Shown here: positions 8,156 to 56,859 of the stretch, one piece after another | How positions within the stretch are numbered: the stretch's first letter is position 1 | Layout: each line of letters starts with the position of its first letter | NCBI GenBank assembly: GCA_050084515.1 | Contig: CM114271.1 | Span: forward strand, 24,118,001 to 24,182,000 | Origin: Blasia pusilla | Lineage: Eukaryota | Length of the DNA stretch: 64,000 nucleotides | Direction of reading: 5' to 3' | The notes under the pieces: generated by a model | What the model saw: the letters and a program-made list of their open reading frames with translations, nothing else | Database searches by the model: none | What the model was told of the DNA's origin: nothing | Position numbers and translations under genes: made by a program

Positions 8156-8159
8156 ATTT

Positions 8160-9000: not shown

Positions 9001-9001
9001 A

Positions 9002-10128: not shown

Positions 10129-10157
10129 TCCACATGAGAGTGGATATTGAGGGAGGG

Positions 10158-24420: not shown

Positions 24421-27400
24421 GGGGGCTGGTATTTTGGCAGGAGAGAGGAAGAGAGGAGAGTCTCTTTCTAAAAAAAAAGGCCAAATCGGCCTCCTCTCTT
24501 CAAATTTTTTGATATATTTGAAATTTTTGTTTGCTTTCAAATTCATAAAATCTTTAGAAGAGAGTAGGTAGTGGTCCACATTCAGGCCTTAAGAAACCTC
24601 TTTTTTCAGTGGGCGAAAAACAAGTAGACATCATAAGACCATTACAAACATTTTTCTATCACTCTCCATGTGAGCCTAAGTTTCTTCACATTGCCTGTCT
24701 CAGTCTACAGTAACCTGTGCCTAGGGGTATTTTTGTTGGAGGACCATTGGCAAATAATTTGACCAGAAGTAGCGATCTCATCTCAATGAAAGGTTCAAAT
24801 AAAGACTCTAATGATGGTCTCAATAGACTGCGGTGTTTTTCAAGGTTTAACTTCTCGGAATATTTGGTTGACATTATGGATTGACATCTCTTCTTGCAGA
24901 AGAAAGGCTCAAGGAAATGCCTGTAAATGATTGTTGACTCTTCTTGCAGAGGGCATCAATACTCATCATACATTATGGAAAACCATTGGCAACATTGTAC
25001 CAAAATGAGAATTTTTGACCTTCCCCCATTTCCAAGTGTCTATAAAGTATTAATGTGTCATGAGACCTTACCCGGATGCGTATCGGGTACGATGCCAACC
25101 TCTCTTTTTGCAGGTATTGTTGCCTGCATCATGGCCTCCCCTGAATTGCCCCATAATTGTCGCGCCCCTACTCTCCTTGAACGTCAATCTTTAGTGTTGC
25201 GGAAGCATACGTTCAGTAGGTCACGATCTCATCGCTGATCTGCACCCAAATACGCACTCTCGTTAGTCGGGTCTGGGCCAACCAGCGTTCCAACCCACCG
25301 AGTTCTCAACTCGACGTCTCATCAAGCTCAACCTTCCTTAGTTCCTAGTTTCCAAAACACGGCAAGTCCTTCAAGACTTGGAACAGACTTCCTGGTTAGT
25401 CCAAGGATCTGAAATGACACTTGCGCGCCTAGCGATCCCAACTGTTCAACGGACCTCGTGTGAGTTTCAAACCGAGACCCACGTAATTGAGTCACGGGGT
25501 GAAATCCAAGAGGGATGTCTAAAATCGCCTCAATAGACTTGGTGCAGGTTTTCCAACCCAACTCCCAAACTCGCGTTCCGTTCCATGCCCTTGAGCCGCC
25601 CCGCGGCGCCCAAAGTGGGGTTTGGGTTCCAAGCACTCTCGAAGACCTTTCCCCTTACTAGTACTTCTGGGGTTCTCCAATAACCCCCCCCCCTCCCCCT
25701 TGGAAAAGGAGGGTCGGGCCCTTCATTGCGGCTCTCAACCGGACTCTACTTACAGTCGTTTCCGGGTTGTTTCTTAGCCTCTGCTGAAGCGTTTGCAAAG
25801 ATCTCTAGTGCGTTTGAACCAGCTTTCCATAAGCTTTCTAACGCACCCTTATTTAATCCATACAAATCTTGGCGCTAAAAGTTATGGCCATAAATACAGT
25901 TGGAAACTCTCAAACGCTAGTGGTGTTCCAAATCCGGATTCTTCCTTTGGCAACCCACTTCCTAGACTCGACTTCTTTCAAGTCTCATTCCGCGTTTGGT
26001 CCAGGTTTCTTGGTCGCGACCACAACATCTGAAACGCGACGCCTCGCTCACGTCTCGTCTCTTGTCTCCTCTTTGAGACTACTCCAACGCGCAAACCATC
26101 TTAGTGTGAGCCCGCTAATGTTCCGATGTTCCGCTTGACATTCGTTTGGTCATGAGGGTCGCGACAATAATGAAAGGTGTATGCTCAAGATCAACTTTGT
26201 GAAATGTGAACACACGAGACGATAATTGAACCAAAAGATTGTTAGCTGTCTAGAGTAAAGAGGAACTGATGTCCCTTCATTCAGATCCTAAATCTGAGAA
26301 ACCAAGAAGCTACACCTCCCAACCCGTCGGAATTTTAAAGGTTGCAACTCTTGCAACCCGTCGGAATCTGATGGATTTCACCCCTTGCAAGCAAGCTCAC
26401 CATAATAAAGGAAAGGTTTTGAGAAGTGATTCCATTCCACCCTGCACCCACGAAAATCCAACAGGTTGGGAATCCGAAATGGCAATCCTACAGGTAGTAG
26501 GAATCCAACACGTCTTAGAGAAGAAAAGAAACCTACGACTAGTTTGACGATACTAGGGGAACAAGCCAAGAGTGAAGAAGCTCGCCACAATGCCTCACAA
26601 GTTGGTCTCACAGGGAAAGAGTCCGATCACTCAAGCAGCCAACTTGTCAGAATCCGACAGCTTGCTTGGAAATGGTTAAAAAGTTGTAGTGGTCAAAAAG
26701 TGGAAAGTTGCAACCCTTCGGAATCAGACGGGTTGCAAAATAAACCGGGGCTGGTATTCTCGTAGGAGAGAGGAAGATAGGAGAGGAAGAGAGGAAGAGA
26801 GGAGAGTCTCTCTTCAAAAAAAGGGGCCAAATCCGCCTCCTCTCTTCAAAACTTTTTGACATATTTGAAAATTTTGTTTGCTTTCAAATTCATGAAATCT
26901 TTAGAAGAGAGTAGGTAGTGGTCCACGTTCGGGCCTAAAAAAACGTTCTTTTTGCAGGGGGTGAAAAACTAGTAGACATCATAAGACCACTACAAACATT
27001 TTCCCATCACTCTCCATGTGAGCCTAAGTTTTTTCACATTGCCTCTCTCAGTCTAAAGTAAGCTATGCCCAGGGCTAGGTTTTTTGGAGGACCATTGGCA
27101 AATAATGTGACCATAAGTAGCAATCTCATCTCAATGAAAGGTTCAAATAAAGGCCAACTTTGTGAAATGTGAACAGGAGATGATAATTGAACCAAAAGAT
27201 TGTTAGTTGTCTGGAGTAAAGAGGAACTGATGTCCCTTCATTCAGATCCTAAATCTGAGAAACCGAGAAGTTGCACCCCTCCCAATCCGTCGGAATTTTA
27301 CACGTTGCAACTCTTGCAACCCGTCGGAATCAGATGACTTGCACCCCTTGCAAGCAAGCTCACCATAACAAAGGAAAGATTTTGAGAAGTGATTCCATTC

Positions 27401-29124: not shown

Positions 29125-29880
29125 TGTTGTGCGCATACACATCGCTACACAACATATATCGCTGTCACCGAACACACACACAAACACGCACGATCCCATG
29201 CTAACTCATGGCATCCAAAAAACAAGACAAGAAGTACCAAATATCTCCAATTAAAGTAAGATCCAATCTCTATCTACACAATCTCACACCATAGCTCTCA
29301 AAGGTGTGCACTCTCTCTCATGTCAAACCAAACCCACTCTCCTAATGAGAGGCTTGGGTTACACTCACAAGGCAAGGGACCATAGCTCCGCCGCCTTATG
29401 CCAAGAGGTTCAACAAAGAGAGAATGAGCTCTCAAGCTCTCTCTCCTTGGGATATATACCCCTCCCCTCTCCCAAGCTCTCTCCATGGTAACCTATTCTC
29501 ACAAGTCACCTCCTTGGCTCTTGACCTGATGTAGGAGGTCAAGGGCCATATACTAAAAATTAGAAAGTCGATCATATACTCAAAATGGTACTTACCTAAA
29601 ATAGCAAGTTCCTCAATATGGCTCCAAATGAGCCAAAACGAAGGGGAAACCTACTCTCGCAGGTTTCTCGGGGCCTCAGCAGGTCATCCTCGACCTCCTA
29701 GGCATGTCGTACACTACTCTTGAAGACGCTCTACTACATCTCACCGATCTATCCTGAAGGACGTGACAATTATCGTGCGCATATACATCGCTGTCACCGA
29801 ACACACACACAAACACGCACGATCCCATGCTAACTCATGGCATCCAAACAACGAGACAAGAAGTACCAAATATCTTCAAT
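29125..29880 (-). repeat. 3' repeat block Y-X-Y of copy 2: Y 29125-29251, X 29252-29768, spacer AT, Y 29771-29880
   Basis: The two Y copies match apart from a 17-bp insertion and a few substitutions; X matches 39927-40444; purine tract AGGGGGGCG (sense) at 29881-29889. Confidence 0.93.
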
Positions 29881-30065
29881 CGCCCCCCTAGTTGGTGGTT
29901 AGGTCCCTCTAACTCCAGATAGCCATCTATCCCTACCTACCATGACATACATCTCTCGGACGCTAAGAGCAAGAAGGCCGGGTGCTCATGTGGCCCCATC
30001 GTTAGTCGCCTTCCTGTCATCCATGTCAGAGAAAAAGTCGGGATCGAACCTACCTAGTATCTCCT

Positions 30066-30809
30066 CTATGTACATCTGGGACACATCCATCGTCCCCGAG
30101 GAACCCTAGTGAGAGGTGGTGTCAGACATGCCATATGCCAACCTCTCGAACAACCATCACAGACTAGCATTGTGGCCGCACCACGGGCAAAACCACACAA
30201 CATACAACGCAAGCCTGCATGAACTACTGCTAAGCTCGGATCCAATGTACTATCAATGTTAGGAAGGTGACATGGTGCAAAATTACGCACATGGTCCTTC
30301 CATACCATACCATCGCGTCCCTCCAGCAAGAGAACACCGGATGGCAAAACGTCACGCACTCTCGGGATAGTGCGCCCTGCAGTCACATCCAACGTCGTCG
30401 GTGCCGTCTGCTGCAAGTAGACATTATCTCCCTGATGAAACCTCCCGATAGTTGGTCGATAACCACCACCCCGAATAGTCGCATACCTCAACGTATCTCG
30501 ATGCTGCGCAATCGCCAAGTTCTCGAACGCCATGGGCATCACTCTCCGAAACAACTCAGCCCTCTGAGAACATGCTTGCACCCATACATCTGGGTCATCA
30601 AGGTCCAGCACCTCACCAGCATCTCGACGAATGGCCGCAGGTAAATGTGGCTGTCGGCCATAAAGTAGAAAGTACGGTGAAAAAGACGCTAAGGATGCAT
30701 GCCTGCTGAATCTGTATCCCATCGCCAACCATGGCAAGTGGAGGTCCCAATCTCCTAGGTGCCCTCTCTGCAAGCCATACTTGCGTAAACCCCTCTTCAT
30801 TGTTTGCAC
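30066..30809 (-). pseudogene. Integrase C-terminal part ending in a PHD finger (copy 2)
   Basis: CMLC..MLVCDGCSRGWHMACLTPPL..VPRGRWMCPRC, a C4HC3 pattern, in frame with the integrase. Confidence 0.93.
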
Positions 30810-33439
30810 AACTCTCTCCGCTAATCCATCCGCCTCAGGATGATCTCACGAAGTCGTGCGGTGGTCGATCAACGCGTGATCACACAAGGCTTGAAACTCA
30901 CTGCGAAACTGGGTACCCTGGTCTGTCAACACCTCAGCCAGTGCGCCATAATGACTCATCACTCTGTCAAGGAAGACATAAGCTACTCCCTCACTCGCTT
31001 TGTCAGGCAATGCAACCAACTCGATCCACTTCGAGAAGTGCTCGACCATCACCAACACATAACGATTGTGACGCTTCGTCAAAGGCAAAGGTCCTGCAAA
31101 ATCCAAACTCCATCTATACCCTAAGCCCATGATCGGTAATGGATGCAACTGTGGAGTCAGAGCATTGAACGATGCTCAGACCCGATCACACACCATGCAC
31201 CTGGCAACAAACTGCTGAACGTCAGTCTGCATGCCTCGCCACCAATACTGAATCTGGAGCAAGCTGTACGTCCGCTTCACCCCAAAGTGACCCAACTCCT
31301 CGTGGGCATGCTGTGCTAGTGGTGCTCTCTGCGAAGGATGCGGCACTACGCGTACTCTGCCATCCTCCCAAACCCTCAAAACATGTGTCCCCTCCCAACG
31401 GAACCGTCCGGCCCACTGTAGGATCCGATCCCGCTCTCTAGCATCCACGGTGCTCGCAACGCTGCCAGTACGAGGTACTCCAAGACTACTCCATCATCAT
31501 GAATATCTCTACCACTTGTCGTCTCCTCACTGGCCTCGGGATCCAAGGACTCTCCACTAGACCTGGCCATCAAAGTCTCCACACTCTGGCTCTCCATAGC
31601 CAACATGCCTAAATAGGTTGACGCGTGCCATCTTGGCACGGACTCCTTATCACTCTCTCCATGCCATCGAGCTCCAGTCGCATCTCGCTGACTCAGGCAT
31701 GGGTTACGACTCAACTCATCTGCATCTTGGTTGAGCATCCCAGGTCTATGTACCACCTGAAAATCATACTCCTGCAACAACAAAGCCCATCTCGCAAGCT
31801 TCCCTGTAAGCTTGTCGGACTCTATCAACCACTTCAGAGGTTGATGATCAGTGATGATGGTAAAGGGGTTGCCGAATAAGTAACACTTGAAATGCAGCCA
31901 AGCACTCACCCTCATACAAGCTGTACTTCGCCTCTGTAGCATTTTTCGAGCGGCTAGCATAAGCCACCACAAACTCTCTACCCTCATCATCATGTTGGGT
32001 GAGCACCGCTCCAAGCCCCAACATGCTCCAATCTGTGTGCAACTGGAAAGGATGCCCCCTAATCGGTCTCCTCAAGATGGGCGCACACGTCAACCTGTCC
32101 TTGAGCAACTAAAATGCTTGCTCCTGCTCATCCCCCCAGTGCCACTCCTGATCCACCTTGGTCAGCAAGGTCAGTTGCTTCGCAATCAAACTAAATCCCT
32201 TGACGTATCGCCGATAGAAGTTCGCCAATCCCATGAATGCGCGAACACGGCTCACATCTGTAGGGCGTGAAATTCGTGAGATAGCCTCTACCTTCATTTG
32301 CTGAACACCAAGGCCCCTTGGGTATATCGTATGACCCAAGTACTCAATCTGGTCGTAGGAGAACTTGCACTTGCCTGGATGTAGCTTCAGCCCATGTAAT
32401 TGCAATCGTCCAAACACCTCCTCTAGATGTCGCTCATGCTCCTCAACGATGGTGCTAAAGACTACAATGTCATTTATATAACACCTAGCAAAATCCAGAC
32501 CAACCAAGATCCTATCCATGACCCTCTGAAACTCAGACGGGGCGTTCTTTAACCCAAATGGTAAGAACCGCCATTGGTACAAATAATCCTTCCCGTGAGA
32601 ATTGATGCCCAAAAATACCGTCTTCTACATGTCCTCCAATCTGATAGGCAATTGATGGTATCCGACTCGCAAATCCAATGAACTGAAGACCTTTGCGTGA
32701 CCAATCGCATCAAAGATCTCCTTAGGGGTGGGCATGGCATACCTATCGAACTTCGTCTGCCAATTGATAGGTCGGTAATCCCCACACATCCGCCTATCCG
32801 TCCAGTTGCCATGCACATCCTTCTTGGCGGGCATGACAGTGGTAGATGCATACTCCCCATGCGACATCTCCACTAGTCTTGCTCTGACCAAGTCTTGGCT
32901 CCTACTCTGAATCAGAGCCCTCTCCATATCATTGTACCTGTAGGATCTTCGGAAGATCGGCGTATCACTTGATAACTCAATGCGGATCCCCGGTCCCTTC
33001 AGCGTACCCAAATCCTCCATGCTAAATGCAAAGCAGCTCCTATAACTCCTCAGGAACTGATGTATTTGGCACCGCTCTCCTCCTATCAACTTAGGGCCCA
33101 TATCTGGCTCCCAAGTCTCCATCGTGACTACGGTAGGACTCTCCGGCATGGGTATCGGTGGTTGCTATGGTGCAACCCCGTCTCGAACAACAACACTCGG
33201 CCGCTCTCTTACAGCCAACTGCAAACTCTGATCTCCTCCACGTGCAGTGCCCGAAACCACGCTCGATGTTGTGGCTATCATCTCCTTGCGTACGAGCAAA
33301 ACATCCCAAGAATTCCAAGGGTGTCTCTCCCGATCTCCTCGGGTCTCGCCCCCAGCCACTGCCTCCACCGTCTCGGTAGGCATGGGGCTCACCAACGCAA
33401 CCGTTGTGATCTGTCGTGATCTCATACGACGCTGCTCAC

Positions 33440-34400
33440 CCCCTCCCAAGCTGAGGATCCATGTCAAGCACTTCAGGTCCATCGCCTGACCCAAGACATG
33501 GCGTCGTGATGCCTCTGACACTGACTGTACTGCCGTCACTCCTCTGGGAAATCCCATCGCTCGCTTTCTCTCGTCGGCGTTGGGCTCCACCAACCGCTAA
33601 ACCTGGTCATCCCAAACCAAGCCAGGAACGGCCTCCTTGTATGCATAGGAAGCGGGAAAACTCACAAACGTGGGCAAGGCTACCCTCGGCCTGCCTACCC
33701 TGTTGACCATAGTCAACAGTGGTCGATCATCGTGCCTCACTTCCTGTGATCGACGACCTGGATCCCGAATGGAATCCACTAACAAATGGGAGGGGCGCTC
33801 CACTCTCGCATACGCCCTCCATAACACCGCATGGGGCACCAAGTTGGTCCACCATAGACGCGGGCGATGGGCTCTAGAACCTACACTCGCCGCATCCAAG
33901 AACACTGCTGGGCCGATCCAGGCACGCACCTGCTGAGCACTCGTCACCACCCGTGACCTAGAGTATCCTAAGATCGGTGCATACTCCAAAATGTAGGCTG
34001 GAGAACGAGACTGGTGCTCCTGCAAGTGCCGTAAGACCCTCAACATCTCCCAAAACAACCTGGACTGAGTGTCAGCCAACCCGCTGCCTGGTCCACTTGA
34101 TTGGCCCTGACATGACCAACCGGCAATGACCAAATCAATGGTCCCTACCCGCTCTAAGTCCTGCGCCCCCAACAACGAAATATCCCTCGATAGGGAACTC
34201 TGGTACCCATGTACTGCGAACGCAGACAATAAGTCGGGAAAACGTAGGCGGAATTGTGCCACATGTGGTAGTGAGACGCGCCTTGCAACATCATCACTCT
34301 CCACATATAGGTACTGTTGTACTCACACTCTTGCCTGCAAAACAACAGCTAACCCGGTGCTAATCCCTCCAAAGAGATCTAACACTCGAATACCCTCCCC
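33440..34400 (-). pseudogene. DNMT3-like C5 methyltransferase domain of copy 2
   Basis: VLDLFGG, IAGWSCQGQS, RLFWEMLR, ILEYA, SRAHRPRLWWTNL, ERKRAMGFP, RRHVLGQAMD; PC and ENV motifs altered in this copy. Confidence 0.9.
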
Positions 34401-35298
34401 CTGGATACACCACACAATGGGTGTGGTATCCAAGGGTGTCATCGTAGCACTCCGTGCTACCTCGGGTTCCTCAGGCCCGTCATGCTCCGGTGCAAACGCT
34501 TTGCTTCACGCGGTCTGCACGTGTTCATCTGCCAATCGTCGAAGCTCCTCAGTCGAGCCCCACATCGGTACCTCTCCTCCACGGAATGATGCACCTACCA
34601 TAACACTCCTCTCCATAGAAATGTCAGGAACGGGAGTATCCTCTGCATTGACATGTCCCTCAATCAAATCACTAGGCCAAGTGATGGCACTGCTAAATGT
34701 TGCTAAGGTCGCCATCTCTCCTGGTCGTTGCTCGATCACTGCACCTGTGAATCGAAGGGGTAATGAGCTAAGACGCCCATCTCTTGACTGCCATCCTGGT
34801 TTGTAGGATGGTGACTCCTCCTAGTAATCCAGGGAAAACCCCATCGGGTATAACACTGCTCCACCAACCAAGACGTCGTAGGACTGTGCATTAGTCACTA
34901 TCGCCTTGGCGCGCACCACGGACTCATATGTAGGATGTCCCAGGAGAATCTTCACCAGGACCTCTTTTCAGATGATATACTGTGTGGTACTCGCTCCACC
35001 CAAGGATGTCTGTATCCGGAATGGACAACGCTCCACATCAGCTCTCGTCAAGCCCAATCCTCTGAATGACGCTTTCCCCAACATGAGGGGTTGCGCTCCT
35101 GAATCCAACAAGACGCGCTACGGACTAAAATCTCTACCTCCAGGACTCACCAACTGGAAGACCTCTCCTCGGTTATCCAGCAACACAACACCAGGAGAAG
35201 CCATGGCACGCTCTATCGCGGGTCTAGCGGGCATCTCCGCCATTCTAGCAGCCGCAGCCTGCCATGAATCTGACGTGGATGGTTCGAGCATTCGCTCC

Positions 35299-36279
35299 TG
35301 TCGCGCCCCTACTCTCCTTGAACATCAATCTTTAGTATTGCGGAAGCGTGCGTTCAGTAGGTCGCAAACTCATCGCCGATCTGCACCCAAACACGCACTC
35401 TCGTTAGTTGGGTCTGGCCAACCGGCGTTCCAACCCACCGAGTCCTCAACTCGGCGTCTCATCAAGCTCAACCTTCCTTAGTTCCTAGCTTCCAAAACAT
35501 GGCAAGTCCTTCAAGACTTGGAACAGACTTCCTGGTTAGTCCAGGGATCTGAAACAACACTTGCGCGCCTAGCAATCCCAACTGTTCAAGGGTCCTCGGG
35601 TGAGTTCCGAACCGAGACTCAAGTAATTGAGTCGCGGGGTGGAATCCAAAAGGGATGTCTAAAATCGCCTCACTGGACTTGGTGCAGGTTTTCCAACCCA
35701 ACCCCCAAACTCGCGTTCCGTTCCATGCCCTTGAGCCGCCCCGCGACGCCCAAAGTGGGGTTTGGGTTCCAAGCACTCTCGGAGACCTTCCCTCTTACTA
35801 GTACTTCTGGGGTTCTCCAATAACCCCTCCCCTTTGGGAAAAGAGGTTCGGGCCCTTCATTGTGGCCCTCAACCCGACTCCACTTACAGTCGTTTTCGGG
35901 TTGTATCTCGGCCACTGCTTATGCGTTTGCAGCGATATTTGGTGCGTTTGGACCGGCTTTCCATAAGCTTTCCAACGCATCCTTATTTGCTCCAAATGCA
36001 TCTTGGCGCTAAAAGTTATGGCCATAAATACAGTCGGAAACTCTCAAACGCTAGTGGCGTTCCAAATCCGGATCTTCCCTTTGGCAACCCACTTCCTAGA
36101 CTCGACTTCTTTCAAGTCTCATTCCGCGTTTGGTCCAGGTTTCTCAGTCGCAACCATAACACCTGAAACGCGACTCCTCGTTCGCGTCTCGTCTCTTGTC
36201 TCCACTTTGAGACAACTCCAACGCGCAAACCATGTTCCATGTTCCGCTTGGCACTTGTTTGGTCATGAGGGTCGCGACA
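35299..36279 (-). mobile_element. Chromovirus solo LTR nested between gag and protease of copy 2
   Basis: TGTCGCG...CGCGACA termini, 5-bp TSD GCTCC (35294-35298, 36280-36284). Confidence 0.95.
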
Positions 36280-39200
36280 GCTCCAAGGGGAGGTCCATCA
36301 CCTCCTCTGCAATCACCTCTGTACGTGATGCAGGAACTCCAACTCCACGCTCACATAGCGACGCGGCCAGCCGAGAAGCCTTGACGGGCGTACCCCCCGA
36401 CGTCATAACATCGGAAGCAGAAAATAAAGGAGTGCGGTACACAACGGTGGCCGCCCCCAACAATGTGCTCGACACATGCCCCTCCTGAGCATCAACAATA
36501 GGAGTCGTTGCACTTGCTTCTCCCATCGCCCTCCGTGCCTGCACACCAACAACATCACCAACTCTCAAGGAACTTTGATCAGGACCCATCCATGGGGTCC
36601 TCATCGCTTCGGACAACGTGAAAGGCTGAGGAAGCCTAGTCTGTTTTCTGGCTTCCCCTCGATGTGGATCCAACTCTGTGGCTGCTCCATGCGTCACAAC
36701 TACGGCGGCCTCCATCTGGGCAACCCTGCACATCCAACCAGGATCCTCCAGATCTCTAACTGCTCCATATGATGTCGATACCACGGATCCGGCATCGGGT
36801 AACCTCAATGCCATAGCGGCAATCTGGTCATGCAGCTGCTATATCTGAGCAGCCATCCTAGCCTCACGTCCGGCCTCTCCCTCGGCGCGTATAGGTGGTG
36901 GTACTCTACCTCCTCCACGGGCAGCTCCACCACCCTGTCGGGCAACTCCAGCTCCTCGTCCCCCAACGAGACCACCTGGTGCACGATCTCTAGGCCCACC
37001 TGGATCGGCTACTCGCTCTGGTGCCCTCTCTGGCCCTCGGTCCGAACGTAACTCAGGATGCAAACTGAAACACTTGGCGCGTGTATGACCATACCTCTGA
37101 CAATAGTCACACTGATAACCTCCGGGTGCAACACCATCTCCTCCTCCATGCTGAGGCATACATCCATGACCCTGACGAGTGCAATGGCGCTGATGATGGG
37201 CTCCACCACATGACCAACAAGTAATAGTAGGCGGTTGTTGTTGAGCCGCATATGAAGGCGCAGGTCTCTGTGCCACGGGCTCCTGGTATCTTCCCTGAGC
37301 TCGTGGTGCCATAGTTGACCTATCTCGGAGTCCACGTTGCTGCACAGGTGGTGCAGCCAATCGCGACTACTCTCGCCGAGAACCCATGATGGCTTACGCT
37401 CTCCTCTGCCATGTTGCGCTCAATGTTCTCAGCGGTCCTAAAAACATCTCTCAACGTAGGGGAGGTGTTCATAAGAAGCACCCTCTCCCGCACCCGTGGC
37501 CGTAGGGTCTGGTCCAGCATCGCGTACCATGACTGGATAGCCCGAGCCTTTGTCACCCCCTGAGTGACGTTGATCAACCGGCGCAAGCGAGTGTAAGCCT
37601 CATGTAAACTCTCACCCGGGTGCCTCCGGAAGTTGTGGATGCTCCGCAACTTTTCCGTCCGTACTCCTTGGTAGCTCGCCCTCAACTCAACAAAGAACTC
37701 AACCACGGGGTTGAACCTGGGACAAACCCGACTAGACGGTGCAACTGCTCCAGTGAGAGTGACCCCTCCTTAAACATCACTAGTGGAAGAGGAAGTAGCC
37801 TACCTTGACTCCTACTCATCTGGGAATGGCTCCCTCCATGACACATAGTGTGGGTCGTAGTAGAGTCGCCATGCCTCAATCTCCTGGGCATATCTGTGGG
37901 AAAACTCATGGTAATCGTCCATGGGTGCCCCCTCTAAATGCTGGAACATACCGTTCCATGATGTAAACGGGTTGAACTCTCTAGAGTTCCTGGCCCGCTG
38001 GGAGTCGCACCAACTCTTAAACTCTGCTATGAAATCGTGCAACTCAATCGTACCTACTGCACCTGAAAACCTACGCGGTCCTCTACCCCGGTCGTCCATC
38101 TCGTACGCCCAACTGGTAGGACCACTCACAATGTGTGGCGATGTTCTCACAAATTCCTCTACACCCTCCCCCTCGTCTGACGATGACACAAAAGGAGGTC
38201 GAGGTGGTCCCTGAAGTGAAGACCCCCGGAACCTAACGCCACTCCGCGTAAAACCTCTAGAGCTACTCTCGGGTTCACCACCTCGCCTCTCAAAGTCCCG
38301 AACGGACGCCGTGATGACCCTCGTGCTCTTCTCACCTGATCACTCTTGCCTCGCAAGTAATCCCTCAACCACTCATCCCAAACATGCGGCACTCGATCTA
38401 CACTCTCCCTCCCCGAGACATGTAACGTGCGGCAATAAGCGGCGTGGTGAGGCAAATCGATCAAGCTATCATCTCATTGACAACCTACCCTCAACTCCGG
38501 ACATCCCACACAGGTCCATGTCCCCTAAATCACATACATAAATAATGCTCTCAGCATCCACACACCCAATATCCCCAAATAAACTACCCAAATCCGAGAA
38601 TCCCTCACACGTGCAGGGTAAAGGGCCAGAATGGGTAACATGAACACATGTCGATGTCGCTCCTCAGCAGCTGCGAATCTCGACCCCAACTCGGTCGTGG
38701 AGACAAATCCTCCAATCAGCAAGTCATACTCCTCCCGTACTAATGTTGCTCAAAACTCCTCGATAGACGGTGCAGTTCCAGTGGAATGGTACGGCGTTGC
38801 AGGCGGCACGCAACGGCTACGAACGGCACGGCCCTCGATGATGGGATGTGGCACTCGGCGGCATACCCTCCTTATTCAACAATAAACCCACACTCTGCTT
38901 CACAATGCCAGAGCGGCTCCGCGATCAAGATGGTGCGGTGCCGCCACGAGTGGCACGGCGCGGCAACCGGCGGCGCGTTGCGGCTACGGGCGTCACGGCA
39001 CGGTACCCGATCGTCGTTGAGCGGCTACGAATCACAACATAGCAGCAGGAAATCAAAACTCAAACAAAATAACAGGAGGTCATAAGCCATCACAGGTTGA
39101 TGACGGTGGCGGCCAAAACAAAGTACGTGATGGCGACGCAAGTCCGAGAATCAATGAATGTTGTGGAAGACCCTCCACTCCGTAATGGCGGCAATGGCAA

Positions 39201-39926
39201 CCAAGGATGGACAACGGACGGTGACGGTTGGCGGTTGATGGTGACGAACGAATGGTGACGGTGACGGTTGACCGTTGGTGGTGATGGTTGACCATCGACG
39301 GTGATGCATGACCGTTGACGGTTGACGGTGACTATGACGGCGACGGCCGCCGCCGGTGTGGCGGCTGGTTTAGGGTTTGCACAATTTAACCCTAAAAATT
39401 GCCTAGCAATGGCATTTTTGCAAGATTGACCATAACTTTTTGCTCGCAACTCCAAATTGTGCATTCTTTGTTGCACAACTTGCACAGCTTCACAATCTAC
39501 GCCAACATTAAAAAATATTTGGAATCAGACATTTGAGTAAAAACTGACGGGGACTTTCATAAAGCCCAATGTCTCTTTCTTCTACCCAACATTCGGCAGC
39601 GCTTTCGCGCTGATTCCTCCCAAAAAAAATGTAAAACCTATAAAAATGCAAATCAAGAAGCGACATGGTGCTCCCAAAAGCACCGGCATGGGGCAACCCT
39701 CCCCCATACTCAATCCCTATCAGAAATTGGGCAGCGCTTCCACACGCCACTCTTCCACACGAAAAATCGGCAAATGCAAAGAACAATCCAAGCAACCCTT
39801 GCTCCGATGAGCACTCCCATGAGCCGTTGAACGGGGAACACGGTCCGCAACCTGCAAAAATAGCGAGTGACCAGCGAGCTCCCCCATGAAGCTCTCTCAC
39901 TCTCTCATTCTCTCATTCTCTCTTTG

Positions 39927-40444
39927 TAAAGTAAGATCCAATCTCTCTCAACACAATCTCACACCGTAGCTCTCAAAGGTGTGCACTCTCTCTCATGTCA
40001 AACGAAACCCACTCTCCTAATGAGAGGCTTGGGTTACACTCACAAGGCAAGGTACCATAGCTCTGCTGCCTCATGCCAGGAGGTTCAACAAAGAGAGAAT
40101 GAGCTCTCAAGCTCTCTCTCCTTGGGATATATACCCCTCCCCTCTCCCAAGCTCCCTCCATGGTAACCTATTCTCCCAAGTCACCTCCTTGGCTCTTGAC
40201 CTGATGTAGGAGGTCAAGGGCCACTTACTAAAAATTAGAAAGTCCATCATATACTCAAAATGGTACTTACCTTAAAATAGCAAGTTTCTCAATATGGCTC
40301 CAAATGAGCCAAAACGAAGGGGAAACCTACTCTCTCAGGTTTCCCGGGGCCTCAGCAGGTCATCCTTGACCTCATACGCTTGTCCTCCACTACTCTTGAA
40401 GACGCTCTACTAGATCTCACCGATCTATCCTAAAGGACATGACA
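39927..40444 (-). repeat. 5' terminal repeat X of copy 2, containing a TATA box
   Basis: 518 bp matching 29252-29768; sense TATATAT at 40133-40127; no Y sequence adjacent. Confidence 0.93.
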
Positions 40445-40718
40445 TGGCTCAGAGCAGCCCATGGTTGGCTTAGAGCACCCCGTCGCATTCAGACGGGTTG
40501 CATCATTCCAAAAATACAAGGAAAAGCATAAGCACTTGCAACCCGTCGGAACCCGACGGGTTGCATTCACCCAATGGAGACTTGCGGTAAATTTGCAACC
40601 CGTCGCTTTCAGACGGATTGCACCACCGAAATCTTCAGCTCAGGCAATCCAACGGGTTGTATGCAGAGACGCAATCTGTCGGAGCAAGACAATTTGGATA
40701 TGGATTTAGAGCCCTTAC

Positions 40719-43700
40719 TCGGATTTTACTCGTCGCGGATTGGAGTGGGTACTCGTTCTTGATGACCCACGATTGCGCCGTCCTCCACTTCAACGACCTC
40801 TTGACGCACTGCACGTTGAAGAGCTTGTCCTCGCTCCCTCCAATCAAAACCAAGAAATAGCCCTTGTCATTGAGATAAGCGTCTGCAAAGGAAAACATGA
40901 GCGCGATGTGGTAATAAGAAAGAGGGACATTCCAGTCTGGGACACCGTCGGACGGATTCTCGTCCCACAAGCGCAACTTTGAGGGCAAATCAGCGACGAG
41001 GAGATCCATTGTCACCTACTCGACCTCCCCATGGACCATCCAGGGAGCGTGCCCGTAAGAAAGAGGGACATTCCAGTCTGGGACACCGTCGGACGGATTC
41101 TCGTCCCACAAGCGCAACCTCGAGGGCAAATCAGCGACGAGGAGATCCACCGCCACCTCCTCGACCTCCCCATGGACCATCCAGGGAGCGTGCCCGTTAC
41201 GTTGAAGCTTCTGTCCCAGCGTTGTCAATTTATCGATGGCGGGTGTTGACGCTTGGGAACTGAAACTTTTTAGCTCATCCAGAAGATTCGTGTAGTGAAT
41301 GATGACGCTTGTCCGGGTCGTTGTTTCTCTATGTCTTCCCAAGGATGATGGAGTGTATTCCACATCTTGGTCTGCTCCCTGGGACAAACATGGCGCCTCT
41401 CGCTTCCGCTTCTCCCGAGTCTACGGTCGGCTTGTTGGGGTCTTTATTACCTCAGACTCTAGTGGAGTTTTTTTGGCGGAGGACCTGGTCCGACCCTCTC
41501 TCCCCGCTTGCGCGGATGATTCCGCCTCTTGCCTTGAATTCTCAGCCTCTTTTTGGGAAGACTCGGCCTCAGAATTCTTCAATCCCCTCGCCTTGGCTTG
41601 GAGACCCACTATAGATTTGTCCTTGGCGGTGACGACCTTGCACACCAACTCCGCTGTCTCGAGGGCTTGCTCCTCCGCATCTCCTTCAAAAAAGTCTTCA
41701 AGCTGCACGAAATTGGGGATGTAGTCCCTACTTGCGGCCACTGCATCATAGAGCAGGCGTAGATTTTTCTCGGTTATGTCCTCAGGGTCGTTGAAGTCCA
41801 GCCAGATGGGGCAATTCTCCACCTCCCAGTCGAGAACATGCTTTGAGCCATCTCCATGTCGTACATGGAAAATGTCTCTCCATGAGGCGAAGAAGCCCAC
41901 AATTTGCAGGCTGCCCGTATTTTTTGCCACGTACCTGCATTCTTACAATGGACAATGTACCTGAACACCATGTGTTGGGCAGCTCTTAGTCGAGATGCAT
42001 CGGCCGCCTGCTCCTGAAGATCTCACTTTTTCTTTGCGAAATCCCTTTTCTTCGCCTCTATTTCTTCATCAAGGTCCGCCTGAGGGAGGATGTGATCCTT
42101 GAACATCGTCCTGAAGCCTGGGTTTTTTATGGGCTTGTCATGGATGTCATCCAGCAAAAGTTCAAAATCTTCAGCACTCTCCACGGTTGCTTCCTCCGGA
42201 AGTGGCTCTATTTTTTTCAGCTCCGCTTGGAGATCCACGAGCATGGACTTCTCGAGAAGCCGCAGAGCATCCCAGAATGACCATTCACAGAGCCAGTGGG
42301 AAATCACTGGATCAGAGACACCCGGAGGATGGTGTGCCACCCTCTTTTGGGCCTCTATGCCCTCGAGACTGATTTCCATAAGTCGGATTCTCCTAAATTC
42401 TGAAATTCCACACACGGCAAATTGATGGACGCAGTCGAGAGACACTTTCTCCCCAATCCGACCCTGCGGATCTTCATCCCTCTTCTACTGGGGCTTGATT
42501 ATCGCCTTCAGCTCCTTGTAGAAATCGGGGCCAAGTTCGGGGTTGAGAATGGCGATGTACCGTTGCATCTTGCTTGCAGTGTACTTTGTAGCTGCAGATA
42601 CTGCAGATTGGATGAACTTAGTACGCTCAGACACAGACACTTTCTCCCTCCGCTCCAGCTCCAATGAAGCGCTCTTCTTGGCGGCATGTATCTTCGACCA
42701 GCAAAGGATTGTCATGGCTGCATCTTGGGAAATAAATGTATTTGCCCAAGTCTTGTTTTTTTTATTTGAGCCCCCTTCGCCTGCATCTCATTTACAAGGG
42801 CGTCGCCCAAGAACCCCTTGTACTCTGCAGTGTACTTCGTAGCTACAGATATTGCAGCTTGGATGAACTTAGCACGCTCAGACACAGACACTTTCTCCCT
42901 CCGCTCCAGCTCCAATGAAGCGCTCTTCTTGGCGGCCTGTATCTTCGACCAGCAAAGGATTGTCACGGCTACATCTTGGGAAATAAATTTATTTGCCCAA
43001 GTCTTTTTTTTTATTTGAGCACCCTTTGCTAGCATCTCATTTACAAGGGCGTTGCCCCAAAACCCCTTGTACTCTTCCAGGTGCGTTGTTAGCACTTTAT
43101 TCACCCGATCGCAATCCTGGATCCAGTGGTGGATGACATTCCCCTCGGATACAATCCTGCACATCCAAACTCAATATAAGAAATTTTGCAAGCTACATGG
43201 GTTCCTGCAACTTGTCGAACTTCGACAGGTCGTCACACCTCATGTTCGGAATGGTAACTACGAGCTAAATTTTGCAACCCATCGGAGTTCGACGGATTGC
43301 ATTTAGATTTGTGATTGCCTGGTTTCAACCCATCGGAGTCCGATGGGTTGTCAGATAATATGTATTCAGAGAGTGGTCTCCGTAGGAAAAGTGAACATAT
43401 CAACCCGTCGGAGTCCGACAGGTTGCGCAATTTCAAGTAAAGCTGCAATTTGACGCCAAAAATCAAGCTCCCCTACTTTGATCACCTTCCTGTGCCAGCG
43501 AATGCAACCCGTCGGAGTCCGACGAGTTTCTTTCGGCCAAAAACATCCTAAAAACAACGGCCAGTCGAGCAACTCGTCAAACTCCAACGAGTTGCTTTCG
43601 GCCAAAAACATCCTAAAACAGCGGCCAGCCGAGCAACTCGTCCGACTACGACGAGTTGCTTTCGGCCAAAAACATCCTAAAAACAGCGGCCAGTCAAGCA

Positions 43701-45155
43701 ACTCGTCGGACTACGACGAGTTGCTTTCGGCCAAAAAAATCCTGAAAACAACGACTAGTCAAGCAACTTGTCGGACTCCGACGAGTTGATTTTGGCCAAA
43801 AATATCCTCAAAAATAGCGGTGAGTCAAGCAACTCGTCGGGCTTCGACGAGTTGCTTTAAGGCATACGATGATTTGTTACCACTAGTTAAACAACTCGTA
43901 GGAGTCCGACGGTTTGGAACAATCAAAATAAAGGAAGAGGAAACTTACGTGTTCATGGCATGCATGGCCATCTCCACCGTCGCCATGTGATGAGGGTATG
44001 GATGAAGCATGACTGCCTTCACGCAAAAATGCGCCTCCAATGAGTTTTGGCGCTCCTCTATAAACTGGGTCCACGCCATAAACCTGTGGTTTCCATCCCA
44101 GATGAAGAAATACAGGTTCCGCATCCAGCTGAATTCCGTCCCTTCAATCGCCCTTCTGAATTCCCGATCTCTCATCCTCCACAATGTGTCGAGCGCTTCC
44201 AAGTCCTCCTCTGTCACCAGCGCTTGGGTTCCATGTTCATTGTAAGGCTGAACATAGAACGGAGGGAAGTTGTTGACATAGGATGTTGTTATTGTCGATT
44301 GTTTCAGCTTCGCAATATCCTCGTCAGACTGAATTTTGCGGACGTACTCCATTGTCCACAATCCGCAAAGTGGAATTCTCGGGGCGTTCTGGCCCTCCAT
44401 CAGTGCCATCTGCTTTACCACCTGTCACAATGGAGACAAGGTCAATAAACTACACTGAATCGCCAATGAATTGCAACATGGGCCTTCACATAACTCAAAG
44501 AACAAAGATCATATCTTACCCGCTCGAAGATTGGGTCGGTGTCTTGGCCCGCCAATTGCTCTGGGACAGCAGCTGGCAAGTCCGCTGGAAACTCGTCAAT
44601 CTGATAGAGGTCAATTTCTTCCGCCGGGCTAAGAGACGATGAAGACTGCTCTCCTACTTCTTCAGAGATATCCACCATCTCCACGCTGGCAGTCCTCATG
44701 ACCTCATCGTCCGTCACTTGAACTTTGCCCATTTCCTCAACCGTTTTCTTATTGATTGTGTCCCCGGACTTCATCGGAGACATTTCTTGCATCTCAACTC
44801 TTTCGGTTGGACCGGCCGGACTTTCTTCAATGGCAATCGCTTTTTCCCTTTGAGCTTTTTCCAATTCTGCTCTCCTCACCAACGCGTCCAGACGCTGCTT
44901 TGCACACTTCTCCTCGGCGATCCTTTTCTTCAAGGCCTGCGACGCCTCAGCCTCTGCGTTCTATTTTTCAATCGCCTCCTTAACACGTTCTGCAAGAAGC
45001 TCCTGCCTATGCATCTCCGCTTCCATTTCGCGCTCCTCGATCTCTTGCTGCCTTATCTCATTGGCCAAACGAGGCCCTGGAGATGGTGACGTAGGAGTCT
45101 TGGACTTGGGAGTGAAGCTCCTTGCCTTGCTTGCTTGAGTTTTTTTCCTCGTCAT
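40719..45155 (-). pseudogene. Left-arm gene: coiled-coil N-terminus, ParB-like motif, N-terminal half of an amino-methyltransferase-like domain; exons about 45155-44520, 44421-43949, 43156-40719
   Basis: GT-AG introns at the same positions as in the right-arm copy; FFIWDGNHRFMAW; VDLLVADLPS..AYLNDKGYFLVL..SWVIK; frameshifts and internal duplications. Confidence 0.75.
43525..43900. repeat. Intronic minisatellite of ~61-bp units, each with a GCAACTCGTCGGANTCCGACGAGTTGC-type palindrome
   Basis: About six units of cggccaaaaacatcctaaaa..gcaactcgtc..gacgagttgcttt; inverted counterpart at 52670-52775 and 61788-61890. Confidence 0.85.
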
Positions 45156-45357
45156 TGTTCCCGAAAATACCACCTCCTCGACAACGAAATTACTTTATGT
45201 GCATGATGAGTCACCTCGATGAGTCACCTTGATGAGTCGCTCGAATCGTCTCATGATGAGTCACTGTGTAAAGCGCCCCTTGGTATCTGGTCCGCTACTG
45301 CCCTAAAGAGCAATCGAGATCGCGAAACGAAAAACCTGAAATGAGCAAACTCTAGCC

Positions 45358-45365
45358 TATTTATA
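45358..45365 (-). promoter_or_regulatory. TATA box of the left-arm gene
   Basis: TATAAATA about 200 bp upstream of the ATG, conserved in the right arm. Confidence 0.6.
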
Positions 45366-45971
45366 CTTTTCGAGCCGTTGGACTGACCGTCGTTCTGACA
45401 GCGACGTGTCGGCCGTTATGGAGGTCTGTACGTGAAAACCACCAACCCGACGGTCTCTGACCGGTTGGAGGCATCCATCCTAGCTGAACTATCCTGGCAA
45501 CCCTTCGGAGTCTGACAGGTTGGGCGCCTCCGCCGTCTTGGGGGAAGAACGCGAGGTACCGGCGCAACCGAGGTGAGGTAAGAAGAGAGGAAGAGAGGAA
45601 GAGAGGAGAGATTAGAGAGGAAACTACCTTCAACCGAAAGAGATACTTTTTTTAAAGAGAGTTTCCGTTGGGTTGAAGAGAGGAAACTTTTTGTGTGAAT
45701 TTTTTTGCACTTTTTTGCTCAGTTATTAAGCAGTCCCACATTTTGTTTTTCCTCTTCCATATTTTGGCAACCAACGTGAGTCTGACGAGTTGCAAATTGC
45801 ACAAAATTTAGAAAACTGAAAAATCAGTGGAATCATAAGTGTGGAACCAATCACTTTTTCCGTCCAAGGTCTGGAAAAAATCTATCATTTGCCCTGGGCA
45901 AAATAGAGTTGAAGCTAAAAGTGAAGGTTCTGGAAAAATGAAAGTATAATCTAAAACCTCATTTTGCATCC

Positions 45972-50419: not shown

Positions 50420-51050
50420 GATCTTGTGACCCGTCGGATTGCAATGGGTTGCCTCGGAACTATGCGTTGTCGCATTGTTACCCGAGGGATAGAAAAGCGT
50501 GCAACCTGTTGATAACCAACGGGTTGCCCTGGTACCTTGCCTATTAACTCAAGATAAGCAAAGCGTGCAACCCGTCGGCTTTGGACGGGTTGCACGCTTC
50601 TGCCTCACCTTGTAACGCTATCATAAAGGATGATAGCATTACAAGGTGCAACCCGTTGCTCTCCGACGAGTTGCGCGGATGCCGCGCCTTCTTGCACAAA
50701 GACGGCGGAGGCACGCAACCCATCGGCCTCAGACGGGTTGCGCAATTGCCTCACCTTGTAAAACTTACATTAAGGAAGCAACCCGTCTGTTTCCGATGAG
50801 TTGCGCGAGTGCCGCACCTTCTTGCCCAAAGAGGGCAGAGGCGCGCAACCCTCCAACGGGTTGCGCTGGTACCTTGCGTTCTTGTTCGAAAGACGGCATA
50901 GGCGCGCAACCTATCGGTCTCGACGGTTTGCGCGGGTATCTCGTGTTCTTGTCCTACGACGGCGGAGGCGCGCAACCTGTCGGTCTCTGACGGGTTGCCA
51001 CGAGGACGGATGCCTTGAACCCTCGGGAAGCGTGCAACCCGTCGAAGCCG
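50420..51050. repeat. Array of ~60-bp units with the palindrome GCAACCCGTCGG..CCGACGGGTTGC
   Basis: Roughly ten degenerate copies between the transposase start and the right-arm promoter. Confidence 0.8.
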
Positions 51051-51148
51051 TCGAGTTGGTTTTTTTCACGTCCAGACTTCCATAACGGCCGGCACGTCGC
51101 CGTCGAAAGGACAATGCGACCCAACAGTCAGCCCAACGGCTCGAAAAG

Positions 51149-51156
51149 TATAAATA
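51149..51156 (+). promoter_or_regulatory. TATA box of the right-arm gene
   Basis: TATAAATA mirrored at 45358-45365. Confidence 0.6.
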
Positions 51157-52775
51157 GGCAAAGGTTTGCTCATTTCCGGTTTTTCCTTTCGCGATCTCAA
51201 TTGCTCTTCCGCGCAGCAGCTGACTAGATACCAAGGGGCGCTTTACATAGCAACTCATCGCGAGACTATTCGAGCGACTCATCGCGAGACGATTCGACCA
51301 AACAATCGCGAGACGATTCGAGATACTCATCAAGGCGACTCATCGCGACATCAGCAAGGCGACTCATCAAGGTGATTCCTCGAGCCGATTCATCGTGCAC
51401 AGAGAGAAATTCCTTGGCCATAGGAGGCATTTTTGGGAACAATGACGAGGAAAAAATCTCAAGCAACCAAGGCTTGGAGCTTCACTCCCAAGTCCATGAG
51501 GACTCTTGCGTCACCATCTCCAGGGCCTCGTTCGGCCAATGAGATAAGGCAGCAAGAAATCGAGGAGCGGGAAAGGGAAGCGGAGATGCACAAGCAGGAG
51601 CTTCTTGCAAAACGTGTAAATGAGGGCGCTCAAAAAACGCTCAGCAGAGGCTGAGGCATCGCAAGCCTTGAAGAAAAGGATTGCCGACGAAAAGCGTGAA
51701 AAGAAGCATCTAGACGCGTCGGTGAGGAGAGCAGAAATTGGCAAAAGCTGGGAGGGAAAAAGTGATTGCCATTGAAGAAAGCCCTGCCCCTCCAACCAAA
51801 AGAGTTGAGATACAGGAAATGTCCCCGATGAAGTGCGAGGACACAATCAATATAACGGAAACGACATAAGTTCAAGTGACGGACAATGAGGTCATGAGGA
51901 CCGCCAGCGTGGTGATGGTGGACATCGCTGAAGAAGCAGGAGAGCGGTCATCCTCATCTCTAAACCCAGCGGAAGAAATTGACCTCTATCAGATCGACAA
52001 GTTTCTAGTGGACTTGCCAGCTGCTGTCCTAGAGTAATTGGTTGGCCAAGACACCAACCCAACTTCGAGCGGGTAAGAGAGGATATGTGTTCTTTGAGTT
52101 ATGTGAAGGCCCATGCTGCAATTCAATGGAAATTCAGTGTAGCTTATTGACCTTGTCCCTGTTGTGACAGGTGGTAAAGCAGATGGCAATGATTGAGGGC
52201 CAGAACGCCCCGAGAATTCCACTTTGCCGATTGCAAACAATGGAGTAAACGTCAGCGAAATTCAGTCTGACGAGGATATTGCGAAGCTGAAACAATCGGT
52301 TATGACAGCATCCTACGTCGACACCTTCCCTCCGTTCTATGTTCAGCCTTACGATGAACATGGAACCCAAGCGTTGGCTACGGAGGACTTGGAAGCGCTC
52401 GACACATTCTGGAGGATGAGAGATCAGGAATTCAGAAGGGCGATAGAGGGGACGGAATTCAGCTCGATGCGGAACCTATATTTCTTCATCTAGGATGGAA
52501 ACCACAGGTTCATGGCATGGACCTAGTTTGCAGAGGGGCGCCCAAACTCATTGGAGGCATATTTTTGCGTGAAGGCAATCGTGCTACATCCATACCCTCA
52601 TCACATGGCGACGGTGGAGATGGCCATGCATGCCATGAACACGTAAGTTTCCTCTTGCTGCAAACCGTCGGACTCCGACAAGTTGTTTGAGTCGCCACTA
52701 TTTTTGGGATGTTTTTGGTCGAAAGCAACTCGTCGGACTGACGAGTTGTTCGACAAATCACTGGTTTAGGATGTT

Positions 52776-53359
52776 TGTCATGCGAATCCCCATCGTCATA
52801 CAACATACATCGCTGACATACCATACTCACATACATACATAACATAGACGAGAGTATCCACAAACGCAAGTGTACCACAACTAAAATCCGTGAAAGACCT
52901 ACTGTCATAAAACACGTTTACAATCACATACAATTGAGCCAAACCCACTCCACGATGGGAGAATCTAGGTCGAAGCTTGGAAACACCATAGCCAAGAGCT
53001 CTACTCACTACCAAGGCTAACTCCCCAAGCATAGCAGGCTCAACTCAAAGAACTGATGTTCTTTGAGGGCAAGCCACCTTATATCCTCCAACCTAAGAGC
53101 GGGCCCCTCTTTGGGAAAGTCACCCCCAAGTGAGTAACCCCAACCCTATGTATGGAACAAAGACATCTCTACCAAGCCACTACGGTCCTACATAAGGAAT
53201 GGCCTCTACCTGACACTATACTCTACGACATAATCCGTATGGTCATGGAATTTTTCGTGCGAATCCCCATCGTCATACAACATACATATTTGACATACCA
53301 TACTCACATACATACATAACATAGACGAGAGTATCCACAAACGCAAGTGTACCACAACT
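52776..53359 (-). repeat. 3' repeat block Y-X-Y of copy 3: Y 52776-52882, X about 52884-53250, Y 53253-53359
   Basis: Y copies near-identical; X matches 61423-61787; purine tract AGGGGGCG (sense) at 53360-53367. Confidence 0.93.
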
Positions 53360-56300: not shown

Positions 56301-56859
56301 GCGATGCATACTCTCCATGCGACAACTCCACTAATCCAGCCTCCAAAAGGTCCAACGTCCTACTCTGAATCAGGTCCCTCTCCATATCACTATATCGGTA
56401 GGGACGACGGAAGATTGGCGTATCACTAGCCAAATCAATCCGTATACCGGGTCCAACCAGAGAACCCAACTCCTTCATGCTAAAGGCAAAACAACTCTTA
56501 TAAGCACGTAGGAACTGTGTCAAGCGTTGTTTCTCACCTCCCGTAAGCTTGGGCCCAAGTAATGGCTCCCAAGTCTCCTCCATTGGCATACTAGAGGGAG
56601 AGGCGATGCCATTGGTGCTACATAACCCCTCACAAGATGATACACCCTTAGCTACACCATCATCTCGAGCAAATAACTCCTCCACCAAAGATGAGCAACC
56701 AACTCCACATGCCCAACCATTACATCCCATTTACTCCAAGGATGCAAAATACTACTCTCCTCGCCCACCGATGCCTCTACCGCCCGGTAGCCATCGAGCT
56801 CATTACAAGGGGTGGAAGACCCTGACATAGTCAAGTCGACGCTCGCCATACCAAGACTC

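Follow-up and report, generated by a model that had tools for sequence, protein, structure and literature searches.

The mRNA of the retrotransposon Tf1 primes reverse transcription with its own 5′ end, which anneals to the primer-binding site, and Tj1 has been assigned to self-priming on sequence evidence of the same sort, as described in passages of one article (PMC4600332). The 64,000-nt stretch of Blasia pusilla DNA analyzed here (the window; contig CM114271.1 of assembly GCA_050084515.1, positions 24,118,001 to 24,182,000) contains three copies of one kind of Ty3/gypsy retrotransposon, each degenerate and all on the minus strand; coordinates running from high to low follow the element sense. 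A short site at the end of the 5′ repeat complements the bases with which the element's transcript is predicted to begin, and Tf1-like self-priming is probably the best explanation of this site.

The Tf1 primer is 11 nt long and is not removed; the duplex predicted here differs in spanning 10-16 nt. The Blasia elements are similar to Tf1 and Tj1 with respect to a site directly after the 5′ long terminal repeat (LTR) that complements the element's own transcript start, and no TGG-type site was found at the repeat of family 1 (copies 1 and 2). They differ in having a PHD finger instead of a chromodomain, 4-bp target duplications and the repeat order A-internal-B-A-B, and the RNase H cleavage proposed for them is drawn by analogy.

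Self-priming has also been predicted for two plant lineages, Tcn1 (chromoviruses from mosses and clubmosses) and TAR (Ty1/copia), and is the dominant site type in both (83% of Tcn1 and 89% of TAR elements in a supplementary table; portions of Neumann et al., 2019, PMC6317226). The Blasia elements share with these lineages a green-plant host and the method of prediction. Unlike Tcn1, for which the same portions give chromodomains in 100% and 5-bp duplications, the present clade combines a PHD finger with 4-bp duplications and often carries a DNA methyltransferase (DNMT), and it was not found among the lineages named in those portions of PMC6317226. Set apart by the PHD finger, the 4-bp duplications and the best 120 homologues, it cannot be filed under the Tf1/sushi-Tcn1 clade.

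KnitGypsy-Dnmt3 from Klebsormidium nitens combines Gypsy domains with the DIRS-like order A-coding-B-A-B (excerpts of de Mendoza et al., 2018, PMC5890265), and "Gypsy-DNMT3" appears as a name for streptophyte elements in part of a 2026 preprint (10.64898/2026.05.21.726589). A Gypsy pol, a C5-DNMT in the polyprotein and the A-coding-B-A-B order are common to KnitGypsy-Dnmt3 and the Blasia elements, which by their sequence belong to this streptophyte Gypsy-DNMT3 (KnitGypsy-Dnmt3-like) kind; in contrast to KnitGypsy-Dnmt3, the closest named homologues of the window copies are from liverworts (59-68% identity over the RNase H piece). The excerpts of PMC5890265 gave no passage on priming, target duplications or the origin of the repeats. 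The literature searched held nothing on priming in the Gypsy-DNMT3 kind and named KnitGypsy in the 2018 paper only, and among the titles and abstract openings listed for split-direct-repeat retrotransposons none concerned Gypsy elements.

Split direct repeats in the order A1-internal-B1-A2-B2 are also a feature of DIRS, PAT and Ngaro; passages of PMC7192593 propose a circular intermediate for these elements and give the DIRS-1 primer as unknown. In contrast to these three, the Blasia elements have a DDE integrase (Integrase_H2C2 plus rve), TG..CA termini, 4-bp duplications and a reverse transcriptase closest to that of Ty3 among solved structures. The DDE integrase, the target duplications and the lack of a tyrosine recombinase match (no Phage_integrase match in 102 window reading frames; Pfam) rule out membership of the DIRS order. 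To our knowledge, Tf1 is the only element in which self-priming has been shown, and predictions of it are confined to Tf1/sushi-Tcn1 chromoviruses and a single copia lineage. The mechanism is already known; the lineage and the architecture are new, and the same priming solution seems, on sequence grounds, to be present in a separate green-lineage Gypsy clade with a DNA methyltransferase and a PHD finger.

Pairing between the predicted transcript start and the putative primer-binding site

Self-BLAST and sequence inspection delimit the copies as follows:
1-8158, minus strand: copy 1, 3′ end outside the window
29125-40444, minus strand: copy 2
52776-61787, minus strand: copy 3

The predicted priming features within them are:
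40127-40133, minus strand: copy 2 TATA box (TATATAT), in A1
40088-40103, minus strand: copy 2 predicted transcript 5′ end and self-primer, CTCATTCTCTCTTTGT, complementary at 16/16 positions to 39927-39912; start placed from TATA spacing only
39912-39927, minus strand: copy 2 predicted primer-binding site, ACAAAGAGAGAATGAG, overlapping A1 by one base (the first of the site, the last of A1)
53043-53055, minus strand: copy 3 A2 primer stretch, CAGTTCTTTGAGT, complementary at 13/13 positions to 61421-61409
61409-61421, minus strand: copy 3 predicted primer-binding site, ACTCAAAGAACTG, one base past the end of A1
7623-7638, minus strand: copy 1 predicted primer-binding site, identical to that of copy 2

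The primer stretch of copy 2 begins 30 nt after the first T of TATATAT, and the site that it complements starts at base 39927, the last base common to A1 and A2 of this copy. A complementary run of 16 was reached in none of 2000 dinucleotide-preserving shuffles of A1 (maximum 12), and within the window the exact 16-mer occurs only in A1 and A2 (29428-29413) and its complement only at 39912-39927 and 7623-7638. In copy 3, the A2 stretch fits its site throughout (0/2000 shuffles), and the A1 stretch (61595-61583) keeps a 10-nt run at 61592-61583, reached by 23/2000 shuffles. Between the two window families 7 of the 12 aligned pairs differ on both sides, and 28-31 nt separate the TATA box from the primer stretch in 9/9 aligned A sequences, including all five 5′ repeats. 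An initial sequence-only reading of this DNA had described a perfect 16-nt complement about 30 nt after the TATA box of copy 2 and a different pair at the equivalent positions of copy 3; both descriptions are exact, and its coordinates and letters for the two copies are all correct. The partner of the copy 1 site has decayed to CTAATTTTGTCTTTGT at 7818-7803 through four changes, with the TATA box mutated too, and pairs by eye through 13 Watson-Crick pairs and one G-U pair, with two mismatches, over 16 positions.

Metagenome contigs scanned with an alignment of the three DNMT frames yielded 16 loci, four of which (L005, L006, L010 and L013) form a lineage with an A repeat ~75% identical to the copy 3 repeat. 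A 5′ repeat and its site are present in L010 and L005, whereas L006 and L013 comprise 3′ ends only (B1-A2-B2). In L010, TTCTTTGAGT pairs with ACTCAAAGAA over a 10-nt run reached by 19/2000 shuffles; in L005, AGTTCTTCGAAT pairs with ATTCAAAGAACT at 11/12 positions with one C-A mismatch, and the L005 site is matched perfectly over 11 nt by GTTCTTTGAAT from the A2 of L006, the element closest to L005. Within the copy-3-like lineage a compensatory switch from G:C to A:U is observed, with GAGT/ACTC in copy 3, L010 and L013 and GAAT/ATTC in L005 and L006. The check for covariation in further families that the sequence-only reading had suggested thus finds the pairing kept in L005 and L010, with a new compensatory change.

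A MAFFT alignment of five leaders (copies 1-3, L005 and L010; alignment A3), its columns anchored by TTGARCCT and the A end, contains 12 pairs, for which 56 of 60 cells are standard pairs (93.3%), compared with 38-53% when the 3′ partner is slid by 1-3 columns. Changes on both sides are observed in 7/12 pairs, a number reached by 5/500 shuffles, and the covariation score of 0.600, versus 0.246 in shuffles, was reached by 0/500. The helix between the 5′ end and the site lies within the minimum free energy (MFE) fold of the predicted leader in copy 2, copy 1 and L010, with a pairing probability of 0.77-1.0 per base in copy 2, ~0.45 in copy 3 and ~0.7 in L005.

We assign a self-primer site because this sequence abuts the 5′ repeat, complements the predicted first bases of the transcript, and has kept its complementarity through sequence change. 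The claim of Tf1-like self-priming that the sequence-only reading had drawn from the preserved pairing is supported by position, above-chance complementarity and covariation; we infer the start site, and Tf1 serves as the model for the RNase H cut and the use of the primer. In the proposed mechanism, transcription would start ~30 nt past the TATA box in A1, giving an RNA that begins with the 13-16-nt stretch. This 5′ end would fold back over R-U5 (~175 nt) and pair with the first bases after A1; the element's RNase H may then cut the RNA at the end of the duplex, as in Tf1, and the freed 3′-OH would prime minus-strand strong-stop DNA, which would transfer to the copy of R in A2. Plus-strand synthesis would begin at the G-rich tract before B1. 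The pairing could be maintained by selection or by copying of the primer into the plus strand in each cycle, and both routes would favor priming.

Transcripts, host primers and alternative explanations

Three RNA-seq runs bearing the same species label were aligned to 38800-40700 at 82% likeness; neither they nor one contig run gave a distinct start signal. The runs gave 1090, 1598 and 1151 fitting reads, with the first mate nearly always on the plus strand, which for the usual stranded libraries indicates RNA of the minus strand, the element sense. Read depth is 154-353 over U3′ (40144-40399), 152-275 over 40016-40143, 120-133 over 39952-40015, 66-69 over 39888-39951, ~52-62 further in, and 0-0.6 beyond 40464. 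Loose read ends at 40444 (91, 154 and 106 reads) and 40433 (39, 90 and 49 reads) carry B sequence, and the B-to-A junction is therefore transcribed. The profile is as expected for transcripts that cross B1, enter A2 and are polyadenylated within A, with an R of ~100 nt.

The same reads contain three minor variants. Twelve reads (5, 2 and 5) join the GA-rich tract past the primer site (39892) to 40064 inside R, with six extra letters between, pointing to a variant copy in which ~180 nt are tandemly duplicated, or to template switching. About half of the reads (30/59, 36/67 and 26/65) miss 8 nt at 39901, corresponding to one GAGAATGA unit (39894-39901), as in copy 1, and about one-third miss 2 nt of the TATA box at 40128 (40127-40128).

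A number of observations weigh against self-priming. The three RNA-seq runs show no pile-up of molecule ends at 40080-40130, including 40103, and the depth over R is not above that over U3′, contrary to a simple sum of transcripts from the 5′ and 3′ repeats; neither finding speaks for or against self-priming, because reads from the 3′ repeats swamp the signal. By the exact-run statistic the pairing of copy 1 is not above chance (reached by 1542/2000 shuffles), and neither is the L005 run of 7 taken alone (837/2000); four of the five 5′ repeats (copy 1, copy 3 A1, L010 and L005) have at least one mismatch in the pairing. The covariation test draws on five elements from about three lineages, all with broken reading frames, and on a structure derived from the same sequences. 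One arm (L) of a hairpin just upstream, described below, is a second possible partner of the primer stretch. A tRNA scan of the window and the 16 loci found no tRNA genes to compare with the site.

The absence of a TGG-type primer-binding site, as claimed in the sequence-only reading, holds for family 1, in which no TGG occurs in the 40 nt after A1 of copies 1 and 2. Copy 3 has a TGG at 11-13 nt past A, and this triplet overlaps the complementary stretch at its end. In copy 3, L010 and L005, stretches with a TGG are located 11-25 nt past A and are unconserved between lineages, as are the sequences downstream of the primer site. A 12-nt initiator-tRNA site motif has no match near any 5′ repeat, and no Rfam family reaches its gathering score in the window, where one weak match at chance level (E 0.3) lies near the site.

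A covarying helix shows selection for pairing, not for priming. With a transcription start that is inferred only, host tRNAs outside the comparison and TGG at the distances given above in three elements, the helix might instead be a long-range leader structure, acting in packaging, dimerization, translational control or masking of the primer site, while a host RNA, e.g. a tRNA fragment, primes. We consider this unlikely. The repeat boundary, at which minus-strand DNA must have its first templated base, lies within one base of the helix start, and the A2|B2 junction agrees with this position; the TGG stretches, by comparison, are not conserved, and family 1 lacks them for 40 nt. Separate lineages would, in addition, require separate host primers.

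Self-priming also has to be weighed against signals at the DNA level, since the primer stretch of copy 2 forms one arm of a hairpin:
40089-40124, minus strand: copy 2 hairpin, located between the TATA box and the beginning of R, with the primer stretch as 3′ arm and a 5′ arm (L) that resembles the primer-site sequence

An analogous hairpin between the TATA box and R is present in every lineage (in copy 3 at 53043-53067 in A2 and 61583-61608 in A1), with MFE values, from folds of each sequence separately, of -19.4 kcal/mol in copy 2, -14.3 in copy 3 A2, -12.0 in L013 and -10.3 in L006; the arms occupy different alignment columns in the two families. The complementarity might accordingly be a by-product of two DNA features, a palindrome at the start site (L arm, loop and 3′ arm) and a second, directly repeated L arm past A, serving protein binding, strand transfer or recombination, and the likeness of the L arm to the primer site, with CTCAAAGAAC in both places in copy 3, is in keeping with such a signal. 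The 3′ arm, however, fits the primer site better than it fits the L arm (16/16 in copy 2, versus a bulged helix with G-U pairs), and at the switch from GAGT to GAAT in L005 and L006 the primer site changes along with the stretch whereas the L arm stays unchanged. The pairing of stretch and site is therefore the tighter relation. The half-sites, moreover, are wholly different between families, unlike a conserved protein-binding site, and we regard a DNA-level origin as improbable. Chance matching in purine- or pyrimidine-rich sequence of low complexity, which the GA-rich tract with an 8-nt repeat unit around the copy 2 site and weak lookalikes at 39896-39919 might suggest, can be set aside almost entirely, given that 0/2000 dinucleotide-preserving shuffles reach 16 or 13 nt and that the same two positions pair in five elements of differing sequence.

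For self-priming the hairpin may have a further consequence. The predicted start lies either in the hairpin loop or where the 3′ arm begins, so that the 5′ arm would be missing from the 5′ end of the RNA and present in the 3′ copy (U3-R), where it may mask the primer stretch.

Repeat architecture and a possible replication scheme

The repeats of copies 2 and 3 comprise:
39927-40444, minus strand: copy 2 A1, the 5′ repeat ("X" in the sequence-only reading), which begins TGTCATG at 40444 and includes U3′, R and U5
29881-29891, minus strand: copy 2 polypurine-tract-like CTAGGGGGGCG, immediately 5′ of B1
29771-29880, minus strand: copy 2 B1, followed by 2 nt (AT) and A2; 96% identical to B2 over 98 nt
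29252-29768, minus strand: copy 2 A2, the 3′ repeat, with the same 16-mer as A1 at 29428-29413
29125-29251, minus strand: copy 2 B2, ending ...CACAACA; flanking bases (by eye) TCCA, versus GCCA before A1
61423-61787, minus strand: copy 3 A1; TATAAGG at 61624-61618, primer stretch decayed to CGATTCTTTGAGT at 61595-61583
53369-53360, minus strand: copy 3 polypurine tract, a G-run directly before B1
52776-53359, minus strand: copy 3 3′ block (B1 53359-~53255, A2 53247-52884, B2 52882-52776)

By self-BLAST, A1 and A2 are 94.8% identical over 518 nt in copy 2 and 95.1% identical in copy 3 (A2 at 52884-53247). The order A-internal-B-A-B is found in copies 2 and 3, L006 and L013, and a G-run immediately precedes B in copies 2 and 3, L006, L010 and L013. 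L010 is A-internal-B only: at 5878-15576 of this locus A2 and B2 are absent and ATTA flanks are intact on both sides, and this form may have arisen through B1/B2 recombination or through cutting at both internal junctions.

Copy 3 lies in a 65-bp tandem array, and because an uninterrupted counterpart of the array is present at 43494-43858 the ends of this copy can be read exactly (TGTCATG...CATGACA, with AACA on both sides). The integrated termini are the start of A and the end of B, forming inverted TGTCrTG...CAyGACA. Target duplications of 4 bp are AACA in copy 3 (61791-61788 and 52775-52772) and ATTA in L010, and the flanks of copy 2 (GCCA/TCCA) match at 3/4 positions. TG..CA termini with 4-bp duplications are the signature of a DDE integrase.

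The two internal junctions of the 3′ block differ in character. The B1|A2 junction reads ...CA, 2 nt, TG..., the two bases being AT in copy 2 and L006, AC in L013 and GT in the commonest expressed form (consensus of the loose read ends at 40444), and is degenerate in copy 3; in its letters it resembles two LTR ends abutted. The A2|B2 junction joins the predicted U5 end, within one base, to the first base after the polypurine tract (...TTTTC-A-GTTGTGG in L013 and ...CTTACTTT-A-ATTGGAG in copy 2). The self-primer site thus also fixes the U5 end of the element, as the sequence-only reading had claimed.

This anatomy indicates that the ends of reverse transcription are the start of B (polypurine tract) and the end of A (self-primer site), and that the integrated ends are the start of A and the end of B. 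Since the polypurine tract adjoins B and the primer site adjoins the end of A, reverse transcription, with its plus strand started at the tract before B1, should make a terminal repeat B+A. The two sets of ends are offset by B (~110 nt; 29125-29891 and 52776-53369 in the window, L006:7590-8171 and L013:4810-5355), and the integrated element thus has the order of the predicted reverse-transcription product, circularly permuted, which fits a circular or concatemeric intermediate.

We tentatively put forward a scheme, undescribed for LTR retrotransposons, that would join these features and that we hold to be possible rather than probable. After self-primed synthesis of the B+A repeat, the DDE integrase would bypass the B+A ends and use the palindromic junction inside each repeat, at which the end of B (...CA), 2 nt and the start of A (TG...) meet. 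The simplest route would be to open a two-repeat circle or a concatemer at a single junction of this type, giving A-internal-B-A-B with a 4-bp target duplication. Masking of the 3′ primer stretch by the hairpin arm that precedes the start would leave only the 5′ end of the RNA able to prime. In this form the DIRS-like repeats of a Gypsy element, noted in 2018, become a testable circle or concatemer model with a cut by a DDE integrase, a model that bears on the general origin of split direct repeats.

A motif in U5, GGAGTGGGTTTGG (40000-40025 and 61480-61500; also in L005, L010, L006 and L013), is nearly unchanged across all lineages, against a likeness of only ~60-75% for the rest of the A repeats, and may act as a downstream element of polyadenylation or within the priming structure.

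Element identity and neighboring sequence

Pfam analysis of 102 stop-to-stop frames gave the domain order, across copies 1-3, of a weak gag match, C5 DNA methylase, RVT_1, RT_RNaseH, Integrase_H2C2, rve and PHD; PF00145, PF00078, PF17917/17919, PF17921 and PF00665 occur in this order on the minus strand in 3/3 copies. At the integrase C terminus a PHD finger (PF00628), and no chromodomain, is found in copies 2 and 3, and the PHD finger is present in most of the homologues listed. The named homologues of the copy 1 RNase H piece, at the 59-68% identity given above, come from the liverworts Calypogeia, Riccia and Marchantia. A search with an intact homologue (P0008), for which Ty3 Gag-Pol and reverse transcriptase are the closest solved structures, adds proteins from Klebsormidium nitens, Closterium and chlorophytes, many with a PHD finger and some with a DNMT; among the matches listed, K. 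nitens PHD-finger retrotransposon proteins are ~40% identical. Neither a fungal Tf1/sushi protein nor a vertebrate member is present among the best 120 of 2180 homologues.

Several loci from the metagenome scan were set aside. L001 is 5′-truncated, its homology beginning ~400 nt before the DNMT, and L002-L004, L007-L009, L011 and L012 are internal fragments; none of these was used. L014-L016 (32-33% identity) look like a host DNMT gene, L014 being AT-rich with possible introns, and were dropped. Viral contigs gave no match with the DNMT alignment; two distant Gypsy viral contigs found with a pol alignment (L017 and L018; 33-37% identity) were without this repeat anatomy and were likewise dropped.

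Elsewhere in the window, ~1.8 kb of copy 2 (34628-36488) are missing from copy 1 and contain a repeat that is also found at 21541-22543 and 25154-26166 (85-91% identical), which identifies this segment as a nested insertion. The repeat with the 65-bp tandem array is present as two inverted copies (40915-45570 versus 50819-52776 plus 61787-64000; 87-91% identical), one of which contains copy 3, and its frames have no Pfam match. A Slu7-like splicing-factor exon (PF11708, E 1e-15) at 15439-16032 on the plus strand probably belongs to a host gene, and 23457-24158 on the minus strand is a piece of a different Gypsy integrase (SH3_Tf2-1, E 4e-14).

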